A stretch of 61,016 nt of DNA from Myxococcales bacterium (GTDB taxonomy: Bacteria; Myxococcota_A; Polyangia; Polyangiales; JAFGIB01): NCBI GenBank assembly GCA_028817905.1, contig JAPPOR010000087.1:1-61016 (forward strand), written 5' to 3'. The notes beneath the pieces are model-generated. The model saw only the letters and a program-made list of their open reading frames with translations. It had not been told where the DNA came from and searched no databases. Below, in pieces: positions 1,477-61,016 of this stretch. Within the stretch, counting starts at the first letter, position 1. The number at the start of each line of letters is the position of its first letter. Made by a program: the position numbers and the translations under genes.

Positions 1477-1588
1477 CTAGCCCGAATCATTCATGACTTG
1501 GGCACGGGCTTTGGCACCGACGGGAATGCTCCCCGTATTCTCTAAGGGACAGAACCCCGTGGTCGAAGGACAAGCGAAGCGGCGAGCG
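1477..1588 (+). mobile_element. MITE-like inverted-repeat element, truncated copy F (left end and core, no right end)
   Basis: CTAGCCCGAATCATTCATGACTTGG...ACGGGAATGCTCCCCGT...GGTCGAAGGACAAGCGAAGCGG aligns to the full copy at 46324-46490. The left internal-loop block is deleted and the right terminal repeat is missing. Confidence 0.75.
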
Positions 1589-1708
1589 CCACCTGGACCC
1601 AGCAACGGCAACGTGTCTACACCTCGACCACAGGAATCCATTCGAGTTCGCGCACGTCAGAGTGCGTGCGCACCGAGCCCGATCGCATCGCCGATCGCAA
1701 GCGGCGGT

Positions 1709-3381: not shown

Positions 3382-3549
3382 CTAGCCCGGATCGTTCACG
3401 ACTTCGACGCCGCCTCGCTTGTGCTTCGACTCCACAGGGACTTTCGCCACCCCAGGAAATACGGGGAGTATTCCCGTCGGTCGTCGAAAGCCCTGCGAAG
3501 CCGAATCCCTGCGCGGTCCGACGCCGAAGTCGTGAATGATTCGGGCTAC
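3382..3549 (-). mobile_element. MITE-like inverted-repeat element, full-length copy C (168 bp, inverted relative to copy A)
   Basis: Reverse complement aligns end to end with 46324-46490. Ends are CTAGCCCGG...TTCGGGCTAC. Sits 10 bp upstream of the DUF1285 start codon. Confidence 0.9.
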
Positions 3550-3668
3550 CCCGGATCATTCACGAACCCCACATCGCCTCGCTGGTCCTCGACTTCACAG
3601 CGCTTTGAGCTCTCTGGCAGGTCCGAGCAGCGTGCCGCTCGGTCGCCAAAAACCCCTGTAAAGTCGAG
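3550..3668 (-). mobile_element. MITE-like element, variant copy D (CACGAAC subfamily), head-to-tail with copy C
   Basis: CCCGGATCATTCACGAACCCCACATCGCCTCGCTGG matches the family end. It has its own long stem CTCGACTTCACAG...CTGTAAAGTCGAG and a different apical segment. Confidence 0.7.
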
Positions 3669-3721
3669 TGTTTGTGCTATACACCGCGGCATTGATCAGC
3701 GTCTGGGCTCGTACATTGACA

Positions 3722-5618: not shown

Positions 5619-5726
5619 CGGGGGATCACTCGCCAATGGCCTCCGCGCACACCCCGCCGCGGACCCAGTTGGTCAAGCGAGTCCGCTCAGCAAAGAACGC
5701 CAGGCGATAGAAACCCAAGTCAACAG

Positions 5727-13000: not shown

Positions 13001-13119
13001 GCCTGCGCCTGGCCACCCCGGTGGGACCCATCGCAGTCGACTACGGGATCATACTGCGTCGCCGCCGCTCGATCGGCGAACCCTTCGGCACCCTGCACTT
13101 CTCGATCGGGTTATTCTAG
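10099..13119 (+). CDS. Omp85-family outer membrane protein assembly factor (BamA/TamA-like, multiple POTRA repeats plus C-terminal beta-barrel)
   Basis: Signal peptide, repeated POTRA-like modules, and a barrel ending GTLHFSIGLF. The FFLGG...RGY motif is typical of D15/Omp85. TTG start at 10099; ATG 10123 is an alternative. Confidence 0.9.
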   Translation: MIRLQHIAMCLLLWLPWAQPSSTHAQVPEVYRGHPVVAVEIVGEAASLIEPAELGIPDGARLTRRLLRESTERLLASDRWVQVQIDASPAQGGVRLRVRLEPRFILTRIQLNGHEAIDELTLRDVLGVRENQPMSQEDLSDIGARLRKVYAARGYLAAAVSLHLRATDNPGRKVLMVEITEGDATTIRSIRFTGDPPKDPNPVLAAMGFGVGDMLDRDAIESQVEQGAAFLRRKGYLEARVGRPAITVQPQGAIIEVASHVGPRYELRLSGFAPLQEPVVRQALSLDTEPLTRSRLRQGIPDAIGDLFARHGFVDTRVETQRLKGKKPGTAVLRIKITPGKWLEVVAVSFAGAQHFSRDFLRDQLFSYLEEDLPGTGIIDPVDAEVADQLTHGERRTRPRETRRPLPRDPRRIYYSSTYEEAIEHIAELYRAEGYLGVKVGPAKLTRVGKRRATVAIPITEGPRTYLHEVRVRGNDVMTPRELLLAAGLERGQAFSYLTLEEARLRMVDAYHERGYVFVRTQPQVRFSPDRTRASLMLDVVEGYPVRIGRVVVTGVERTDERFVREVLSLSQGDVFRPSLARKSEADLQALGVFSGVRVSLEEPDLPARVKRLVVEVSERKSQYLNFSAGVSTGQGIRGGFEYGYRNLFGRAVELSLRVQLAHQLFFVDRLAERRFKNLTSLNERVERRISLGLVIPRTPGLSDVRTSFDIVHLRDNERDFGLDKNGIGVTFTYLPLRLLTTTLGADLENNNVGLFVGTALSELAPTLDLRQQRLLRVPEGDTTLVALRSSASYDRRDNPFTPKRGFFVSLNGEIARTLTAESVQDGSIVSSFDSQFLKAAVSVSSYLPIGDDIVFANQGRIGRIFHFTSTSQTYPNRAFFLGGVDTMRGYFEDAMVPQDVAEEVVYNPELSQTSIVRAGDAFVLFRSELRLPLYGQLRAGLFVDMGNLWAQAENLAPGNLRHAVGAGLRLATPVGPIAVDYGIILRRRRSIGEPFGTLHFSIGLF

Positions 13120-13203
13120 GAGCACGCCCTGGCGTGGATACTGCACCCGCTGTCGCACGGATTGCGCAGGGATCGTGCCTCGCAGGGGCTCATGATGCAC
13201 TAG
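13116..13203 (+). mobile_element. MITE-like element, degenerate internally deleted copy J
   Basis: Begins at the CTAG containing the Omp85 stop. GGATACTGCACCCGCTGTCGCACGGATTGCGCAGGGATCGTGCCTCGCAGGGGCT aligns with GGATCATTCACGACTTCGGCGTCGGATCGCGCAGGGATTCGGCTTCGCAGGGCT. Ends at CTAG 13200-13203. Confidence 0.5.
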
Positions 13204-13341
13204 ACCCAAGCGCGGTGCCGCCAAGATTTGCCGGGAACAAGGCGAAAATATGCAGCGGTGCACGACTGCCGGCACGGCCCTCTTGACCGCCCCCCCAGGG
13301 CTTGGCAGTGCGCGGCCAAAAGGACCCAAGGGCCACTTCGA

Positions 13342-13391: not shown

Positions 13392-13592
13392 ATGGCGCTA
13401 TCTGAAAAGTTGATCGACAAGCGAGTGTTGCGCCGGTCCCTGGAAAGAGGACTGGTCGACGAGGCAGAGTTCGAAAACCACCTGGCCTCCCTTCCCGACC
13501 TTAGCGGCCAGGTCGAGGACGGCCCAGGGGAACCTGCGGTCCCGGAAGCCAGCCCGCCGCTGCCACCAGCACCGCACGACTTTCAACCGTAG
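13392..13592 (+). CDS. small hypothetical protein (66 aa, Pro-rich tail)
   Basis: Good promoter and SD. Product starts MALSEKLIDKRVLRRSLERGLVDEAEFENHLASLPDLSG. The TAG stop is the first TAG of repeat copy E. Confidence 0.5.
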   Translation: MALSEKLIDKRVLRRSLERGLVDEAEFENHLASLPDLSGQVEDGPGEPAVPEASPPLPPAPHDFQP

Positions 13593-13742
13593 CCCGGACC
13601 TCGCATGACTTCGGCGTCGGATCGCGCGGGGATGGGGCTTGTCGGGGGTTTAAGCAACCGACGGGAGTACACTTCGTTCCCAAGGCGGAAGGCATCGGGA
13701 GTCGAGGTACAAGCGAGGCGGCATCAAAGTCAGGAAGGTTCC
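13589..13742 (+). mobile_element. MITE-like element, diverged copy E
   Basis: GTAGCCCGGACCTCGCATGACTTCGGCGTCGGATCGCGCGGGG...GGAGTCGAGGTACAAGCGAGGCGGCATCAAAGTCA aligns with copy A. The right end has decayed. Confidence 0.75.
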
Positions 13743-13807
13743 AGCGCGAGGCGCCTGCCGTTCACGGTAGGTTGTTACGTCGGATTCTCGGGGATGGGAG
13801 CGTAGCG

Positions 13808-23239: not shown

Positions 23240-23347
23240 CGAGCAGAACGGCTTGGCACCTAGCCCGTACCCGATCGGCCCACACGCTCTGACCCGGATC
23301 GTTCCGGCCTCGCGACAGCACGAACCGCCGCCCTTCAGGGGCGCGGC

Positions 23348-33015: not shown

Positions 33016-33420
33016 ATGCGCATACTGAGTTCAACGCAAGGTGGCATCCGTTGGGTCCCGGCATTCGCGCTGCTGGGGCTTCTGGGTGTAATCGGCTGCA
33101 ACGAGTCGGAGGGCACCGAACGGGTGCCAGGAGCCTATCCGCCGGAGGCGGAGATCGATCGCTCAAAGGGCATCGACCCATCACGACTGGTCGACAGCGG
33201 CATGGGCGGTGACGGCGACATGGCCGCCGGCGACGGCGACATCGCTGCCGGCGACGGCGACATGGCTGCCGGCGCCGGCGACATGGCTGCAGGCGCCGGC
33301 GACATGGGCGGCGACGGCGCCGGCGACGGCAGATGCCCGGCTGAAGACACCGACCCCACTCCAAGGATCAGACCTCAGACCGCGACCGGCCGCAAGGCAC
33401 GGTCGCGGTCTCAATTTTAG
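33016..33420 (+). CDS. small lipoprotein with tandem GDGDMAA heptad repeats
   Basis: Lipobox LLGVIGC. Five to six in-frame 21-bp repeats. Begins 16 nt after the receptor stop. Confidence 0.6.
   Translation: MRILSSTQGGIRWVPAFALLGLLGVIGCNESEGTERVPGAYPPEAEIDRSKGIDPSRLVDSGMGGDGDMAAGDGDIAAGDGDMAAGAGDMAAGAGDMGGDGAGDGRCPAEDTDPTPRIRPQTATGRKARSRSQF
33208..33330 (+). repeat. 21-bp tandem repeat, about 5.8 copies (GGCGACGGCGACATGGCYGCC), in frame
   Basis: Read directly. Encodes GDGDMAA GDGDIAA GDGDMAA GAGDMAA GAGDMGG DGAGDG. Confidence 0.9.
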
Positions 33421-33421
33421 G

Positions 33422-33699
33422 CTAGTCCCGACGTTTCACCAATCTTCGTGGCGCCTCCGATCTTGGGACCTGAGGAGCGCCATCTTCGCTTGCATCTCAG
33501 CGAGTACCAAGTCCGGATTGTCCACCAACCCACATCGCCTCACGTGACTCTCGACTCGGTTTTAGCATCCGCGCATTGGCGGCCGGTGACCGCATGAGCC
33601 CCGTGAAGCCCATGCTGTGTTGATGAATGATCCCGGCTAGCTTCGCGCGCACAAACCCCTGTGCAGTAGACGCCTGCACGGGTCATTCACGACTTGGTG
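33422..33699. mobile_element. cluster of degenerate MITE-like copies or fragments
   Basis: The cluster has three parts. An end-like CTAGTCCCGACGTTTCACCAATCTTCG is at 33422. A CACGAAC-subfamily copy (CCGGATTGTCCACCAACCCACATCGCCTCACG...GATGAATGATCCCGGCTAG) ends at 33640. A further end fragment, GGGTCATTCACGACTTGG, is at 33679-33699. Confidence 0.6.
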
Positions 33700-39077: not shown

Positions 39078-39211
39078 TCGCCCGATCGCACCACGCCCAC
39101 GGGAGCTAAGCTAAGTACAGGCACCGGAAACGGAAAAGTGCGCGCAAGAACGGCATGAGCGTGCGACCGCCTGCGTGCCCGAGCCCGCGCCCGTTGAACT
39201 ACCGCGCGACG

Positions 39212-39378
39212 CCAGCCCGGATGATGCATGACTGCGACGTCGGATCGCGCAGGGATTCGGCTTCGCGGAGCTTTCGACGACCGACGAGAATACTGCCTGT
39301 ATTTTCTAGGGCGGCGAAAGTCCCGTGGAGTCGAAGGGCAAGCGAGGCGGCGTCGCAGTCATCAATCATCCGGGCTAG
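39212..39378 (+). mobile_element. MITE-like inverted-repeat element, full-length copy B (167 bp)
   Basis: Aligns end to end with copy A. The terminal repeats carry matched substitutions in both arms. Ends are CCAGCCCGG...CCGGGCTAG. Confidence 0.9.
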
Positions 39379-39979
39379 GCGCCTGCTCCGAATACCCCCG
39401 CATGACCGCGGTCACGCGCAGCGTGTGGCCACGGACGATCATCTCCGATACGACTCGAACCGGACCGACGTGGGGACAATAGGTCGTCCAAATGCGGTTT
39501 CCGGACCGCTGGTTGGTTTCCTCCACCTCGGCACAGTTGGTGAAGTCCCCGGCGGGCGTCTCGATCGCTGCCACTTGACGGGTGAGCTTCGCCTCGACGC
39601 CCTTTCCCGACGTCCAGCTGGCACCCACCTCCAGGGGCTCGCGCAGCAGAAACCCTCCCTTGGCCGGCCGATACCAGCCCTCAGGTCGCCTCTCGTAGGC
39701 TGTCTGCTCCTTGCCGACCTGCACCAGGGCGCTCTTCCCCGGGACGGCGGTGATCACACGCGTCACCACCAGCACGTTGTCGCCGTCACCGGTCTCCACG
39801 TCGAAGGACCACGCGCGCCCCTCCGCGAGGGGAAACAGCGTTTCGGGCGTCCACGGCGCCGGCTCGGGAGCAACCTGCGAGGCGCCCCCAGCGCACCCGA
39901 TCCCCGCAAGCATGAGGACAACCACGCGCGCCACTGCGGGTACTGCACAAGCGCGCGAACGGAGTGCGGCCGCCGCCAT
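39362..39979 (-). CDS. hypothetical lipoprotein
   Basis: Start taken at MAAAALRSRACAVPAVARVVVLMLAGIGCAGG (lipobox). The last 17 nt and the stop lie inside repeat copy B. The track ORF up to 40213 is an open upstream extension. Confidence 0.6.
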   Translation of the reverse strand: MAAAALRSRACAVPAVARVVVLMLAGIGCAGGASQVAPEPAPWTPETLFPLAEGRAWSFDVETGDGDNVLVVTRVITAVPGKSALVQVGKEQTAYERRPEGWYRPAKGGFLLREPLEVGASWTSGKGVEAKLTRQVAAIETPAGDFTNCAEVEETNQRSGNRIWTTYCPHVGPVRVVSEMIVRGHTLRVTAVMRGYSEQAPSPDD

Positions 39980-40250
39980 TCCGCCAACTCGCGATTGGAT
40001 CCAGCTGGGACTTGGCTTGACACGGCCCTCGACGGCCGACCGAATACTCGCTGCAACTGCGAGGGAGGTGAAACGTGTGCCGTCTAGGCTGAGCGAAGCG
40101 CTGCGATGCCGGTGAAATGTCCGGGCTCGCGATACCCCGGAGGCGCGGCGGACGACCCGAACGGGTACTGGCCGGCAGCGGGCGGCAATCGGGTCAAGGC
40201 GCGGCATGATCAAGGTGGCCCTCCTGGCGGCATCGGGTGATCTGGCGGCA

Positions 40251-40517
40251 TCAGATGATGTAGGCGATCACGACACCGATGAACAGTGCACAGCAGGCCA
40301 GCAAGACCCCCCACTGCACGCGGTCAGGGTCCATTCGACGCAACAACTGCTGGGCACGTTCACACTCCTGACGATCCGGCGTGTCGAGCAGCCCACGAGC
40401 AAGCATGCGTGCGCGCCGGTAGTCACCCGCGTGATAGGCGCGCTCATGGGGCGCCAGGTTCGCCTCGAAACCACCTTCTGACCCATCGGCCTGAGCCCCG
40501 TCGTCTCCAGTCGTCAT
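40251..40517 (-). CDS. small hypothetical tail-anchored membrane protein (88 aa)
   Basis: ATG at 40517 (MTTGDDG...). C-terminal TM WGVLLACCALFIGVVIAYII. No family recognised. Confidence 0.45.
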   Translation of the reverse strand: MTTGDDGAQADGSEGGFEANLAPHERAYHAGDYRRARMLARGLLDTPDRQECERAQQLLRRMDPDRVQWGVLLACCALFIGVVIAYII

Positions 40518-40564
40518 CACACAACACTCATAGCAAGAGGACCACAAACGCGCTTGGCAAGCCA

Positions 40565-40580
40565 AGCTAGCTAGCTAGCT
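40565..40580. repeat. (AGCT)4 tract, equivalent to three overlapping CTAG; gives a stop codon in all six frames
   Basis: Read directly: AGCTAGCTAGCTAGCT, intergenic, 10 nt downstream of the 40590 gene stop. Confidence 0.9.
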
Positions 40581-40589
40581 GATCGGCGG

Positions 40590-44031: not shown

Positions 44032-45957
44032 CTAGTCGTTGCGATGCGCGAGTTGGTGGAGACGCTCGCTGGCTGCCGTGAGGCCGGCCAGGCGCTGCTG
44101 GTGGGCGCGCGTGAGGTCCCGGATGCGCTCGACTGTCTGGGAGGTCTCCTCGGAGGCCTTGGCCTGCTGGGCCTGGGATTGATGAAGCTGGTTGACCATC
44201 TGCGAGATATTCTCGATCGCGCTGGTGATCTGACGGCTGCCGCGTGACTGCTCCTGCTGACTGCGCTCGACGTGCTGGGTGATCGTCCGCATCTTCTCGG
44301 CGCTCCCCATGATCAGCTCGGAGCCGCGCGCCTGCTCGGCGGTGGCCGCCGCGATCTGCTGCACGGTTTCGGCGATCCGGGTGATGGCGTCGGTCACCTG
44401 CTTGCTACCCTTGGCCTGCTCGACCGTAGCGCGCGCGATGGCGCCGACCATGTTGGTAGACTTGGTCGAGGAATCGAGAATCTTCTTGAGGGCCTGTTCG
44501 GCCTCCGCGCTCACCTCGACACCCCGATCGACCGTCGTCGCACCCCGCTCGACGGCCTGGATCGCGTTCATGGTCTCTTCCTGGATCGTCTTGATCAGAC
44601 TCGCGATCTCCTTGGTGGAGGTACCGGAGCGCTCGGCCAACTCCTTGATCTCGTCCGCCACCACAGCGAAGCCCTTGCCGTACTCGCCGGCCTGCGCGGC
44701 GATGATCGCGGCGTTCAACGCCAACAGGTTCGTCTGTTCTGCAACGTCGTCGATGACGTTCAAGATGTCGCCGATGGCCTCGATGCGCGAGCCAAGTGAC
44801 ACAATCGCGCTGACAGCATCGGAAGACGATTCCTTGATGCGGTTGATCTCGAAGATCGTCCGGGTAATGGCGTCGGCGCCCCGCTCAGCATCCATGGCGA
44901 CTTGCTCGGACAGGCGTGACGTCTGGTTGGCGTTGGACTGAACCTGGTCGATCGAGACGTCCATCTGGTTCATCGACGAAGAGGTCTCCTCGGTCATGAG
45001 GGACAAGGCGTCGACGTTTCGTGCGACCTCCTTGATGCTGTATGCCATCTCCTCGATCGAAGAGACCGTGTCCCGTACGCTGTTGGCAAGCGTGGCCATG
45101 TTCTCCGCAACCTCGTCGTTGGTCGCCTTCATCTCGAGAATCGACGAGGAAGACTCCTCGGCGCTTGCCGCCAGCACCTCGACACTGTCCGCTACACCGC
45201 GCAGTACCTCCGCTGTGTCGATCACCGCGCGTGCAGCCTGATCGATGGCCGCTGCCTGCTCGCCCACGCTGGCGCCGAACTCGTCAACGTGGCTAGCCAA
45301 GGACTCCTCTGCCTTCGCCAGGTCACGCTGACGGCGCTCTACTTCGCCCCGCTGGGCCTCGGCCTCGGCGCGCAGGCTTTCGGCCTCCGCTCGCAAGTTC
45401 TCGCCTTCCGCCCGCAAGCTCTCGCCCTCCGCTCGCACGCCCTCGACCTCCGCTCGCAGCCTCTCGACCTCCGCGAGTTGACCCTCCTTCTGGCCTCGCA
45501 GGCTCTCGGCCTCGGCGCGCTGGCTCTCGATCTCCCCGCGCAAGCTCTCGATTTCGCCACGCAGGCTCTCGGCTTCGGCTTGCTGCCCCTCGGCCTGATC
45601 TCGCAGGCGCTCCGCATCCTTTTCGATCTCCGACTCACGCGCGGACCGCGTACCGAGGTCCTGCGCGAGATCTTCCAACGCATCGAACACCTGGCCGAGC
45701 TCGGGGGTGGTCGTCATCGGCCGGTTGGGCTGCTCACCGCGCCGGGCCGCCTTGATCGCACTGCGAAGTGCGAAGAGCTGGTCCTTGCCGGCGCCACCGC
45801 CGTCCAGCAGGAACAGCATTCCGCCGATCCCGAGTCCGATGCCGATCAGGCCCGCCCAGTAGTGCGCTACGGGAACCGTGGCCGAGACGACCACGCCGAG
45901 GAGGAGGACGATGGCGGCAGGGAGCCGATTCTTGTTCTCGAGAAGAGTCTTGATCAT
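44032..45957 (-). CDS. methyl-accepting chemotaxis protein (TM hairpin, heptad-repeat linker, long signalling domain)
   Basis: The highly conserved tip is [38 protein letters not shown] at 45957 ([10 protein letters not shown]) precedes two adjacent TM helices. The track ORF up to 46320 is an upstream extension. Confidence 0.9.
45325..45611 (-). repeat. about 13-14 tandem 21-bp units encoding AE(A/G)ESLR-type heptads within the MCP
   Basis: Protein [81 protein letters not shown]. The DNA periodicity is visible. Confidence 0.85.
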
Positions 45958-46286
45958 GACAAGCGTGGACAGAACGCGACATTCCTTCAGACGCAAGGCA
46001 CGCCGGTTTGCTGAAGGTCTTCCGCAAAGATAGGGTAACTTTCGCAGACAAAACGGCGCAATACATCGATGCGTCAGCCGGCCACAGTTGCGCAAACCGC
46101 GACGTGACCGGGCCCACTCGCTATACGGATGGGTAGGTAAGATGGTGCAGGCGATGGAGGCTCCTACGGGACTTCGGGTGACCGGGAGAGCACCTCCCAT
46201 TCCCAAAAGACCTGCTCGTCGCCACAGCCGGAGCAGAGCGAAGCGGCGCGACCCGCGGATTGGGGGACCCGGCTTCGCCGGGACGG

Positions 46287-46310
46287 GGGAAAGGGCGCGT
46301 GCCCTTTCCC
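46287..46310. terminator. 24-bp palindrome GGGAAAGGGCGCGTGCCCTTTCCC (second copy of the 44000 hairpin)
   Basis: 10-bp stem with a GCGT loop. Lies between repeat copy A and the MCP promoter region, downstream of the kinase gene. Confidence 0.5.
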
Positions 46311-46323
46311 GCATGGACACTCG

Positions 46324-46490
46324 CTAGCCCGGATCATTCACGACTTCGGCGTCGGATCGCGCAGGGTTTCGGCTTCACAGGGCTTTCGACGACCGACGGG
46401 AATACTCCCCGTATTTTCTAGGGCGGCGAAAGCCCTGTGGAGTCGAAGGACAAGCGAGGCGGGGGCGAAGTCGTGAATGATCCGGGCTAG
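46324..46490 (+). mobile_element. MITE-like inverted-repeat element, full-length reference copy A (167 bp, perfect 25-bp terminal inverted repeats)
   Basis: CTAGCCCGGATCATTCACGACTTCG at 46324-46348 is the exact reverse complement of 46466-46490. An inner 21-bp stem and an apical hairpin are present. The kinase stop codon lies in its last CTAG. Confidence 0.92.
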
Positions 46491-47596: not shown

Positions 47597-47698
47597 CGAG
47601 CCATTTACTTGACAGCCAGGTTCGTCGTTTCGTCCTCGCTCAACCCCGGCTCCGCAGGTGCGCTTGCATGGTCGCGTCCATTGGGGGTCTAGCTAGCA

Positions 47699-47722: not shown

Positions 47723-49024
47723 TCAGACCCGGAGCGCGATGAGGTGCTCCCGCCGGGCACGACCACCCTGGAAGTCGGGGCGTGGCTGCGAGGCTGACGC
47801 CCGAAAACGAAGCCCGGCCATGGGTGCAAGCGCCTGCACTTGACGACTGGCGTCGAGGCGCTGACCGCCGACATGGGCATCCCCCAGCCACAGCAGGATC
47901 CACCCTTCCCGCGCCGTCACCCTGGCCATGGCCGCAAGGGCATCGCCGAGCTCCCGCTCCCACGTGCGAACGGCGACCCCGGGGGCCGCCTGGGCCAGAT
48001 TGCGACGGGCCCCGATCTCCCCGGCCCTCAGGTTCCGATCCGACATGCCGAACCAAGGATAGCGGCGTGCGTGATGGTCCACGTAGTCATACGTCCCGCC
48101 ATAGGGCGGCGAAGTCAGCACGAGACCAGCCGCAAAGCCCGGTGGCAGGGCCTCGGATAGACGTCTCGCATCCGCTTCGACCAGCTCGACCGGGGGCGGC
48201 TCGGGGCCGGCGTGCGAGATGACCTCGGCCAAGTCCGACAGGCGATCGCACAGTTCGTTGCCACGCCGCGCAAAGAGCTCGGTAACCAGCCCCTTGCGTA
48301 TCCGCCGCTCGACGATCTGCTCCGAAGTGTTTGCCCGTTGCCGCGAGAACTTCACCAGCAACGAGGAGAACACCACCTCGAGCGCGGCCAGGTCCACAGC
48401 CGACTGCAGCGCCTGCACCTCTGCGTGTAGACCCGCAAGCTCCAGCAGCACGTGCGGTGCGTAGAAAGCGCGCTCCCGAACGGGAAGTGGTGCGCGGACA
48501 CGTACGCGACCCCGCACACGGGCACTGGAACCCTCGGCAACCCGGACGACGGCCGCGCGCAGGCGCGCAAGGGACGCCTCGTCCCGATGCTGGCACTGGA
48601 CTGCTGCGATCTTGAGCGCGATCGGGTTGAGGTCCACACCGACAGCGGGCACGCCACGAGCACGAGCCTCAACCAGAACGGTACCACTGCCACAGAACGG
48701 ATCGAGCACCGGCCCGCCTTCGACCGACGCAAACGCCTCCAGCGCGGCGCCGGCCAGGGGCGGATGCATACGGGCAGGGTATCCGTGAAAGCCGTGGGTC
48801 AAGCGCTCGTTCGAAACGCGCCCGGCCTGTGCGAGCACCTGAGCCAGGCGAGCCGCGACGCGCTCATCGCCCACACGGTCGATGGCCCCTCCCTGGTGCA
48901 TCAACGCACGCCGGGCGCGCTGCATAGGCGCGCGCCCTGCACGGCCTCGCGACGCCCCTGGTTCAGGTCGTGCCCGTGTGGTTCGTGTGGTTCGCCTGCC
49001 TCGCGCCATGGAACGGTTCCGCAC
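47723..49024 (-). CDS. SAM-dependent N-methyltransferase (motif I DPFCGSGT upstream, motif IV SPPY downstream); DNA or RNA target unresolved
   Basis: HGYPARMHPPLAGAALEAFASVEGGPVLDPFCGSGTVLVEA, and about 190 aa later LVLTSPPYGGTYDY. GTG start 2 nt after the upstream stop. Confidence 0.75.
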   Translation of the reverse strand: MRNRSMARGRRTTRTTRARPEPGASRGRAGRAPMQRARRALMHQGGAIDRVGDERVAARLAQVLAQAGRVSNERLTHGFHGYPARMHPPLAGAALEAFASVEGGPVLDPFCGSGTVLVEARARGVPAVGVDLNPIALKIAAVQCQHRDEASLARLRAAVVRVAEGSSARVRGRVRVRAPLPVRERAFYAPHVLLELAGLHAEVQALQSAVDLAALEVVFSSLLVKFSRQRANTSEQIVERRIRKGLVTELFARRGNELCDRLSDLAEVISHAGPEPPPVELVEADARRLSEALPPGFAAGLVLTSPPYGGTYDYVDHHARRYPWFGMSDRNLRAGEIGARRNLAQAAPGVAVRTWERELGDALAAMARVTAREGWILLWLGDAHVGGQRLDASRQVQALAPMAGLRFRASASQPRPDFQGGRARREHLIALRV

Positions 49025-49026
49025 GC

Positions 49027-50070
49027 CTACTCCGGCCGGCCCCGACGGTCGAGCAGTATCGCAGGCACATGCTGCCCGACGACCCCCTGCGCCCGCTGCC
49101 GCTGGCGCGGACTATTGGGCTCCTGGGCGGAGATCGACAGATCGAAGAACGCCCTCAACGCGTGGGCCTCCGGGGTACGGGCACCGGCGTGGTCACGGGC
49201 CACAAACGACCTGTGCCGTACCCTGTCGCGCCCATCCCCAACACCGGATCGCGGCGGCGGCCCGGCAAGCTCGGCCGTCGTGCCCCGAGGCCAAGCGAGC
49301 GTCCACACACAGAAGAGCGGAGCTTTGTAGCGTGCCGCTGGCCACACCTTGCGTTCGCTGACGACCCGAAGACCTGCAGACGCAGCGCTCTGGTAGAGCC
49401 GCTCGGGCGCTCGGGCATCGCCGCATACCACCACGTGGCCGTCAGGCGCGAGCAGACGTGCGGCCGCCCGCACGTAGTCTTCGACGCCGCCACGGAGCTC
49501 AACGCGCGCGTGTGCGCGCTGGGAATCGGGAGAGATCGTACCCCTGCCGACGGGCTGATATGGGGGGGTCCCCGTCACCAGGTCGTGACGGGCACCACCG
49601 AGCTGCGCCGCCAGCGCCTCGGAACGCAGGTCCGCCTGCAGAAGTGTCACACGGCGGGCGACGCCATTGCGGGCCACGTTGCGGAGCGCGAGCGCGTGGG
49701 ACTCTTCCTGGGCCTCGATCCCGATCAAACGGGCCCGCGGAAACTTGTAGGCCAGCATGAGTAGCACCGAGCCAATCCCGCACCCCAGGTCCACGATGGA
49801 CGCGGGCGCCGCTGCTCGCCCGGGAGGACACGCGGGGCCCCCCTGGTCGCTCCGTTCCTGACGAGCATCCCGCGCCCAGGCCTCCCCGGGCTCGGACGAG
49901 CAGGCAGGTGTCGCGCCGGTGGTTGGCTCGGTGGCCGCCCCTGGAAAGAGCATCCCGGCCTCCCAAGCCGTCACACAGTCGTCGAGCGAATACCGGTGGC
50001 CCCGCCGACGCTGAAAGACGCGAAACCCGCCGGTCAAGGCGTCGTCGGTGAGATCATCCAAGGCCGACAT
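49027..50070 (-). CDS. methyltransferase-small-domain protein (TrmN6/YfiC-like, TPPY motif) with Pro/Ala-rich insertion
   Basis: FRVFQRRRGHRYSLDD, IVDLGCGIGSV, DLVTGTPPYQP and RVELRGGVEDY. About 50 aa of low complexity is inserted before motif I. Confidence 0.75.
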   Translation of the reverse strand: MSALDDLTDDALTGGFRVFQRRRGHRYSLDDCVTAWEAGMLFPGAATEPTTGATPACSSEPGEAWARDARQERSDQGGPACPPGRAAAPASIVDLGCGIGSVLLMLAYKFPRARLIGIEAQEESHALALRNVARNGVARRVTLLQADLRSEALAAQLGGARHDLVTGTPPYQPVGRGTISPDSQRAHARVELRGGVEDYVRAAARLLAPDGHVVVCGDARAPERLYQSAASAGLRVVSERKVWPAARYKAPLFCVWTLAWPRGTTAELAGPPPRSGVGDGRDRVRHRSFVARDHAGARTPEAHALRAFFDLSISAQEPNSPRQRQRAQGVVGQHVPAILLDRRGRPE

Positions 50071-56682: not shown

Positions 56683-56754
56683 ACTCCGCTCGACCCTATC
56701 CTAGATTTTGCGTCGGATGGCCTCCGACCCCCACGCAGCGCCCCACGGCGCCCA

Positions 56755-56780
56755 AGCCCGGATCATTCATGAACTCGAAC
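56755..56780 (-). mobile_element. MITE-like element end fragment H
   Basis: AAGCCCGGATCATTCATGAACTCGAAC matches the family terminal repeat (CACGAAC-type continuation). No partner end is present. Confidence 0.5.
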
Positions 56781-56804
56781 CTGCTCGAATCCTCTCAGAG
56801 CTGC

Positions 56805-60970: not shown

Positions 60971-61016
60971 GGATCATTCACGAACGCCGGGTATCGGCGC
61001 GGCCGTCCCTCCGCCC
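60971..61016 (-). mobile_element. MITE-like element end (copy G), cut by window edge
   Basis: GGATCATTCACGAACGCCGGG begins immediately after the transporter TGA. It has the same CACGAAC-type end as copy D. Confidence 0.55.

Follow-up and report, generated by a model that had tools for sequence, protein, structure and literature searches.

The stretch analysed here, called the window throughout, is a whole NCBI contig of 61,016 bp (G+C 64.3%) from a metagenome-assembled genome (MAG) of the Polyangiales (Myxococcota). It is a housekeeping region that encodes TamB, an Omp85/BamA-like protein, a ClpB-like ATPase, a Mur ligase, GyrB, a TonB receptor with ExbB, TatABC, TolB, DHFR, a methyl-accepting chemotaxis protein (MCP) and a Ser/Thr kinase. 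No GTDB representative exceeds 72% identity in GyrB, and the best matches come from Polyangiales, Sandaracinaceae and other Myxococcota MAGs. Dispersed among these genes is a family of short inverted-repeat sequences, which are very probably miniature inverted-repeat transposable elements (MITEs) whose ends are those of IS1380-family insertion sequences (ISs).

An intact element measures about 159 bp plus flanks, starts with CCCGGATCATTCACGA and finishes with its reverse complement. Copy A (46324-46490, plus strand; hidden Markov model (HMM) E = 8e-59) has its element proper at 46328-46486, with CTAG at 46324-46327 and again at 46487-46490. It lies between the stop codon of the Ser/Thr kinase gene, of which the TAG is inside the right CTAG, and the start of the MCP gene, and its terminal inverted repeats (TIRs) are perfect over 21 bp, or 25 bp counting CTAG. 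Copy C (3382-3549, minus strand; E = 3e-57) is likewise intact, is 93% identical to A, has the flanks CTAG/CTAC and is found in a divergent intergenic region. Copy B (39212-39378, plus strand; E = 1.5e-56) is intact and diverged, with about 86-87% identity to A, flanks CCAG/CTAG and the same four changes relative to A in both inverted repeats. The arms of B and C extend over 30-37 nt and are 86-87% complementary.

An HMM built from A, B and C and run on the window recovered four further copies. Copy D (13589-13750, plus strand; E = 1e-23) is diverged, with the left flank GTAG and a decayed right end. Copy E (1477-1593, plus strand; E = 1e-14) retains a left end with CTAG, has an internal deletion and is missing its right end. 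Copy F (3546-3711, minus strand; E = 4e-14), a diverged copy with the CACGAAC end subtype, adjoins copy C, with which it has the 4-mer CTAC (3546-3549) in common. Flank 4-mers are shared in the same way at two loci outside the window (L020 and L039; comparison loci outside the window are labelled with L-numbers), which is what would result if an element had inserted into a target already duplicated by its neighbour. Copy G (39977-40129, plus strand; E = 3e-10) is decayed. Together with B it is housed in a 1.5-kb interval (39078-40589) between a gene for a tetratricopeptide repeat protein and the next gene, in which no open reading frame (ORF) has a Pfam match.

Smaller pieces accompany these copies. 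A probable, strongly diverged element at 33422-33640 (minus strand) lies between two CTAG sites and has one recognisable terminus, TGATGAATGATCCCGG followed by CTAG, with a weak HMM match at 33508-33640 (E = 0.17). Close to it, at 33676-33696 (plus strand), is the solo terminus-like sequence GCACGGGTCATTCACGACTTGG, for which the HMM is not significant. A solo left terminus, CCCGGATCATTCATGAAC, is found between two minus-strand genes at 56753-56804 (plus strand; E = 0.1-0.24). The truncated terminus GGATCATTCACGAAC (60971-61016, plus strand) begins one base past a TGA stop codon, and the contig stops inside it. Finally, a possible internal remnant at 13116-13203, between two CTAG sites, gives a weak HMM match at 13138-13210 (E = 0.061). 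The window thus has seven HMM-significant copies and four or five fragments in 61 kb, about one copy per 9 kb. Allowing up to three mismatches, a 17-mer of the terminus occurs 11 times against 0.20 expected, and none of 100 shuffles reached 11. The identity of 93% between A and C, the divergence of B and of D to G, and the solo ends indicate repeated or long-lasting activity followed by decay.

A previous interpretation made from the letters of the window, the sequence-only reading, had placed full-length copies where we find A, B and C, and had described the perfect 25-bp TIRs of copy A and two end subtypes; all of this was borne out, with both CACGACTTCG and CA(C/T)GAAC ends seen in the window. 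Most of its diverged and fragmentary copies were recovered as well. It overlooked copy G, and its possible remnants at 5619-5690 and 23260-23330 have no HMM match; by eye, the sequence at 23260 amounts only to CTAGCCCG plus CCCGGATCGTTC. Its description of non-autonomous, MITE-like elements with TIRs, intergenic and flanked by CTAG, is supported here. All six frames of the element are short and match only spurious ORFs, so that it has no coding capacity. As that reading had stated, the window also appears free of genes for a transposase, an integrase or a reverse transcriptase, given that tblastn with an IS1380 transposase was empty and that Pfam scans of 30 of the larger window ORFs revealed no such domain.

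The ends of the element are widespread. The 19-mer TAGCCCGGATCATTCACGA, searched exactly in GTDB representative genomes, is present at more than 95 loci among the matches listed, in Planctomycetota, Myxococcota, Acidobacteriota, Armatimonadota, Actinomycetota, Methylomirabilota, Gemmatimonadota, Alphaproteobacteria and others. At these listed loci, 50 short elements of 92-436 bp are bounded by the inverted 19-mer, and their interiors form unrelated clusters.

Long elements with the same ends reveal what these ends are. The element at 157-1800 of L041 (1644 bp) encodes a 456-aa protein that scores 378 bits against NF033539 (cut-off 180) and 441 bits against PF13701, and the one at 2570-4264 of L082 has a frameshifted IS1380 transposase. 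Both are bounded by a 16-mer identical to CCCGGATCATTCACGA. At L037 (Methylobacterium), L051 (Thermoanaerobaculia) and L013 (an alphaproteobacterium), an IS1380 transposase ends about 200 bp inside an exact, inward-facing terminus, and the IS end of L037 matches copy A at 25 of 26 nt. A scan for relatives of the L041 transposase yielded 80 further loci, nearly all with ends of the type CCCGGAT(N)(A/T)TT(C/G)CA. One of these loci, from a Myxococcales MAG (L188), has a 1674-bp IS that is bounded by CCCGGATCATTCACCA and TCGTGAATTATCCGGG and occupies a CTAG site. A further IS1380 element, in L342, also occupies a CTAG site and has a different subterminal sequence. The named element ISPa33, on pKF715A, has the ends CCCGGATTTCTCATGA and is flanked by CTAA/CTAA. 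The first bases are CCCGGAT (as in the window copies), CCCGAAT, CCCGGAA or CCCAGAT in 69 of 70 full-length elements, the other one starting with CCCTGAT.

Given that each element of 1.6-1.7 kb found between these ends encodes an IS1380-family transposase (NF033539, PF13701), the ends of the window elements are IS1380-family inverted repeats. The transposases of L041, L051, L013, L037 and L188 are only about 37-47% identical to one another, and their ends are identical or near-identical over 16-19 nt. Judged from these comparisons, the terminus is far more conserved than the transposase that would recognise it. An IS1380 origin is established for the ends only: when the interiors of the 50 short elements were compared by BLAST with about 90 IS1380 loci, no common interior was found.

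The sequence-only reading had proposed looking for an autonomous IS with matching ends, and the IS1380-family elements, of which those in L041 and L082 share the 16-mer, are such ISs. It had also not recognised the sequence as a named REP, MITE or ncRNA family. The sequence is no orphan, in that its termini are those of IS1380-family ISs such as ISPa33.

The sequence beside the ends could be read in several ways. Counted over all termini, the four positions outside CCCGG (-4 to -1) are C in 131 of 165 cases, T in 151, A in 154 and G in 153, with position -5 random. Such conservation by itself cannot separate a model in which CTAG belongs to the element from one in which TA is duplicated or one in which CTAG is. 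The pairing of flanks can. Identical 4-bp flanks are present in 58 of 70 full-length IS1380-type elements (CTAG 32, CTAA 15, TTAG 10, CTGG 1), compared with about 25 expected from marginal frequencies, and of the 38 pairs other than CTAG/CTAG, 26 are still identical. The 4-mer also varies among copies of one IS in one genome, as with CTAA in L186 and CTAG in L187 and in the Opitutales and Verrucomicrobiae series. Since the 4-mers are paired and yet vary with the site, the four bases belong to the flank, insertion duplicates them, and YTAR is the target. For the MITEs, 19 of 52 flank pairs are identical, including CTAA/CTAA twice (L004, L035) and TTAG/TTAG once (L017).

This evidence bears on the two parentages that the sequence-only reading had offered, a TA-duplicating element of the IS630/Tc1 type and a CTAG-duplicating one like IS5. 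Its CTAG option for the target-site duplication stands, by virtue of the 4-bp duplication in the relatives, and its TA option and the attribution to IS5 do not. For an IS630/Tc1-mariner-type MITE, the element would span GCCCGG to CCGGGC and duplicate TA. TA does flank nearly every copy on both sides, and IS630 itself prefers CTAG and duplicates TA. However, site-variable identical 4-mers refute the TA model: the base beside TA co-varies on both sides with the site (CTAA/CTAA 15 times, TTAG/TTAG 10 times), even for identical IS copies, and the same flanks enclose the MITEs of L004, L035 and L017. None of the long elements with these ends was found to encode an IS630-type transposase, all of them being of the IS1380 family, and we consider this origin exceedingly unlikely. 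An IS5-family MITE is very unlikely. It would explain the type of duplication, because CTAG, CTAA and TTAG are those described for IS5, and IS5 proper also duplicates a 4-bp YTAR target. However, the CCC-starting termini are identical to those of NF033539/PF13701 (IS1380) elements in at least 75 cases, IS5 inverted repeats, which begin with GGAAGG, appear unrelated to these ends, and no IS5-type transposase was seen between ends of the CCCGGATCATTCA type. The window family is a conventional selfish element, and its parent family is IS1380, not IS630/Tc1 or IS5.

CTAG is scarce in the window, with 67 occurrences against 201 expected, a three-fold depletion. Several of the occupied sites contain stop codons, in that a TAG stop lies inside the flank of a MITE or remnant for the kinase gene (46487-46489, copy A), for the ORF at 13393-13592 (stop 13590-13592, copy D with its GTAG flank) and for the Omp85/BamA-like gene (13117-13119, remnant). 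From this, insertion seems to favour stop codons that stand in a C-TAG-G context. Because CTAG is rare and often overlaps TAG stops, targeting of this tetranucleotide may account for the placement at gene ends and in intergenic DNA, for the density of the family and for its tolerance in a housekeeping region.

Tandems of CTAG were also observed in intergenic window DNA, namely CTAGCTAGCTAG at 40567-40578 and CTAGCTAG at 47689-47696. Three overlapping tandems were counted where 0.07 are expected, and other loci with MITEs, 600 kb in all, had none. Excision that leaves both target copies behind as a footprint could explain the window tandems, as could tetranucleotide slippage. Separately, two adjacent methyltransferase-like genes, at 47723-49024 and 49027-50070, with weak matches to N6_N4_Mtase/UPF0020 and Methyltransf_25, adjoin copy A in this strongly CTAG-depleted genome.

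The fold of copy A is a single long hairpin, with an energy of -116.8 kcal/mol for the plus strand (z = -12.6) and -95.2 kcal/mol for the minus strand (z = -11.3). Beyond the inverted repeat, identity between the left arm and the reverse complement of the right one is only 70-74%, so that the element is an imperfect palindrome, with the apex GAATAC-N5-GTATT in the window family. The arms differ at 14-15 sites common to A, B and C, and these differences are therefore ancestral. The sole concerted arm changes in the window family are those at the four inverted-repeat sites of copy B. Taken together, the ancestral differences and the mere four concerted sites provide no independent evidence of selection on structure. 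Other families with these ends vary in this respect: a 231-bp family of Planctomycetota and a 124-bp family of Kofleriaceae pair at the inverted repeats only, and many families of 160-180 bp are complete hairpins.

One such group is a superfamily of 176-178 bp, a full hairpin with the same IS1380-type ends, found in Polyangiaceae, Terriglobia, another Acidobacteriota MAG and an unclassified MAG. Its copies are located at 4423-4606 of L012, 1266-1449 of L074, 3983-4167 of L086, 3163-3347 of L055, 569-753 of L087, 187-370 of L042, 4571-4756 of L018, 5968-6153 of L093, 1005-1189 of L054, 3945-4130 of L077 and 7812-7996 of L089. Neither the ends nor the apex stem, CGTAC-loop-GTACG, varies, and the arms differ by lineage yet remain complementary. 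Overall, 91.7% of cells are paired, compared with 35-42% when the partner is slid, and changes on both sides are seen in 33 of 60 pairs; none of 500 shuffles reached the observed values. G:U pairs are almost nil, which points to complementarity at the level of DNA and not to selection on RNA. Cross-phylum transfer, repeated fold-back origin and arm conversion are possible causes. Neither the window family nor the sampled IS ends have the CGTAC...GTACG apex.

A fold of this strength raises the question of whether the hairpin, as transcript or as DNA, is kept for a host job, be it to terminate or attenuate transcription, to stabilise an mRNA from its 3' end or to act as a small RNA. Some features would fit such a role, beginning with the z score of -12.6. 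Copies are sited directly past stop codons, a weak terminator-like apex hairpin with a T-tract is present on the plus strand (ACGGGAATACTCCCCGT ATTTTCT), and the related 177-bp superfamily preserves arm complementarity despite sequence change. The strands of A, B and C differ by about 21-24 kcal/mol, which is consistent with strand-favouring G:U pairs, but an asymmetry inherited from one ancestor is a single observation. Orientation is mixed, with A antisense to its operon and C and E in divergent promoter regions, and many copies are decayed or truncated. Moreover, the covariation in the superfamily is nearly pure Watson-Crick, with very few G:U pairs, and the same ends also occur on subfamilies that are no hairpins at all. 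The search of Rfam that the sequence-only reading had suggested returned no family, with 0 matches at the gathering threshold over the whole window and a best sub-threshold score for copy A of 23.6 bits against a cut-off of 70. We therefore regard a host function as an unproven minority possibility, and an improbable one.

Palindromic, dense and intergenic repeats also bring to mind the repetitive extragenic palindromic (REP) sequences and bacterial interspersed mosaic elements (BIMEs) that are spread by REP-associated tyrosine transposases (RAYTs; IS200/IS605-like), and some copies (C, D) even have a GTAG-like head. Against this, the elements are 160 bp in size, with TIRs of 16-25 bp and a 4-mer duplication, they share their ends with IS1380 elements, and the Pfam scans of 30 of the larger window ORFs disclosed no transposase and no RAYT gene; such an origin is barely conceivable. 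A different proposal concerns how hairpins of this kind come about. MITEs of 160-180 bp with IS1380 ends might be generated or maintained as DNA palindromes, either because one end is copied by fold-back at a small hairpin inside the element or because the arms of a copy convert each other. We hold this to be rather unlikely. The proposal draws on the 177-bp superfamily, whose arms change in strictly compensatory Watson-Crick fashion. Were this to reflect a requirement of a piggyBac-like IS1380 transposition pathway, such as a single-stranded or cruciform substrate, or a structural role acquired by exaptation, it would add a new feature to what is known of bacterial DDE transposition, and the CTAGCTAG (CTAG) tandems would be candidate excision footprints.

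Returning to MITEs with IS1380 ends, the following scenario can be envisaged. Another part of the genome would encode, or would once have encoded, a DDE transposase of the IS1380 family that binds both identical ends. The element would insert at a YTAR tetranucleotide, in the window nearly always CTAG, where a 4-nt staggered cut would be filled in to give the CTAG duplication. Copies would then gather in places that tolerate them, directly past genes and in the DNA between genes, and their decay would later produce diverged copies such as D to G, as well as solo ends. The long hairpin may be a by-product of the origin or maintenance of the family, with no need of a host function. Mobilisation in trans, current activity and target-driven placement are parts of this scenario that we infer.

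Several observations weigh against this interpretation. The window itself lacks an IS1380 transposase in tblastn searches, and the likeness to IS1380 elements is restricted to the outer 20-26 bp, with a window interior that matches none of the roughly 90 IS1380 loci examined. A perfect CTAG/CTAG pair is present in copy A only, B and C each differing from it on one side. The interior of the subfamily was not found in GTDB representatives (exact search), in JGI metagenome contigs (degenerate pattern) or in plasmids (blastn). Neither an empty site nor a presence/absence polymorphism was found, so that mobility of the window family is also something that we infer. With a best GyrB identity of 72%, the GTDB representatives include no close relative of the host that would offer an orthologous site for comparison, and a search with the ClpB-like protein for relatives or empty sites gave only paralogues at about 40% identity. 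The 25-nt extended terminus has no copies in JGI metagenome contigs, and a query with the Myxococcales transposase returned thousands of IS1380 proteins, none of which could be tied to this MAG.

Evidence on abundance beyond the window comes from broken assemblies. The independent Logan and ENA contigs L096 and L097, which contain the same kinase gene, end within copy A, and a 4.6-kb NCBI Myxococcales contig has a further, non-identical copy. The latter was detected by a protein-database search with the open frame of the MITE, as the C-terminus of a spurious protein, MDD9946771.1, that is annotated as partial. Contig ends inside copies, in the window as in L096 and L097, and a partial product are expected for a high-copy repeat, and they support a high genomic copy number indirectly.

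Two further repeats in the window are of another kind. A tandem array of 21-bp (7-codon) units, at least 11 of them, occupies 45304-45640 inside the MCP gene (44032-46320). A second 21-bp array, with about five units (GDGDMAA-like), is found at 33186-33322 in a small ORF (33016-33420) downstream of the TonB-dependent receptor gene.

From a practical perspective, the motif CTAG followed by CCCGGATCATTCACGA (16-20 bp) explains a class of intergenic repeats, and the contig breaks that go with it, in MAGs of many phyla. Such repeats break short-read assemblies and yield spurious partial "hypothetical proteins" such as MDD9946771.1. Targeting of a rare CTAG that often overlaps TAG stops would concentrate insertions at gene ends, where they can alter 3' ends and promoters. 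The hairpin superfamily, with its Watson-Crick covariation across phyla, merits specialist attention.

Among known systems, the IS1380 family is the closest. ISPa33, IS1380A, IS1247 and the elements of L041, L082, L188 and L342 share with the window elements the CCCGGAT start and the duplicated 4-bp YTAR/CTAG sites, whereas they are 1.55-1.75 kb long and have a transposase, compared with about 159 bp and none in the window, where the interior corresponds to that of no sampled IS1380 element. The end to which the transposase would bind is unchanged between elements with transposases only about 40-45% identical. MITEs of the IS630/Tc1-mariner group resemble the window family in their preference for CTAG-like, TA-containing sites, but differ in duplicating TA only, not the 4 bp seen with window-type ends. 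Correia, RUP and Nezha are further bacterial MITEs. With bacterial MITEs in general the window elements have in common their small size, IS-matching TIRs, target-site duplication, intergenic location and multiple copies, and a possible folding into long stem-loops; what distinguishes them is that their ends are those of the IS1380 family. MITEPye1, for instance, has IS1182-related ends (PMC11578231), and TIMEs are derived from Tn3 (PMC4133298). In a limited search of the literature, which is no proof of absence, we did not find MITEs with IS1380 ends, or this terminus in a relevant context. For IS1247, a 5-bp direct repeat is listed (PMC3281130).

It is also interesting to consider the eukaryotic piggyBac transposons and their MITEs, given that IS1380 transposases serve as a prokaryotic outgroup in studies of that group (PMC10813416). 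Both piggyBac and the window elements have CCC...GGG ends and duplicate a palindromic 4-bp target, TTAA in piggyBac and CTAG here. Precise excision and hairpin intermediates are known for piggyBac, and if the CTAGCTAG tandems are excision footprints, they would argue against seamless excision of the piggyBac style. The target tetranucleotide is a different one, and the hosts of the window family are bacterial. Nevertheless, the use of 4-bp YTAR/CTAG targets by IS1380 elements parallels that of TTAA by piggyBac, and the IS1380 family, as the bacterial relatives of piggyBac, has given rise to abundant MITEs.

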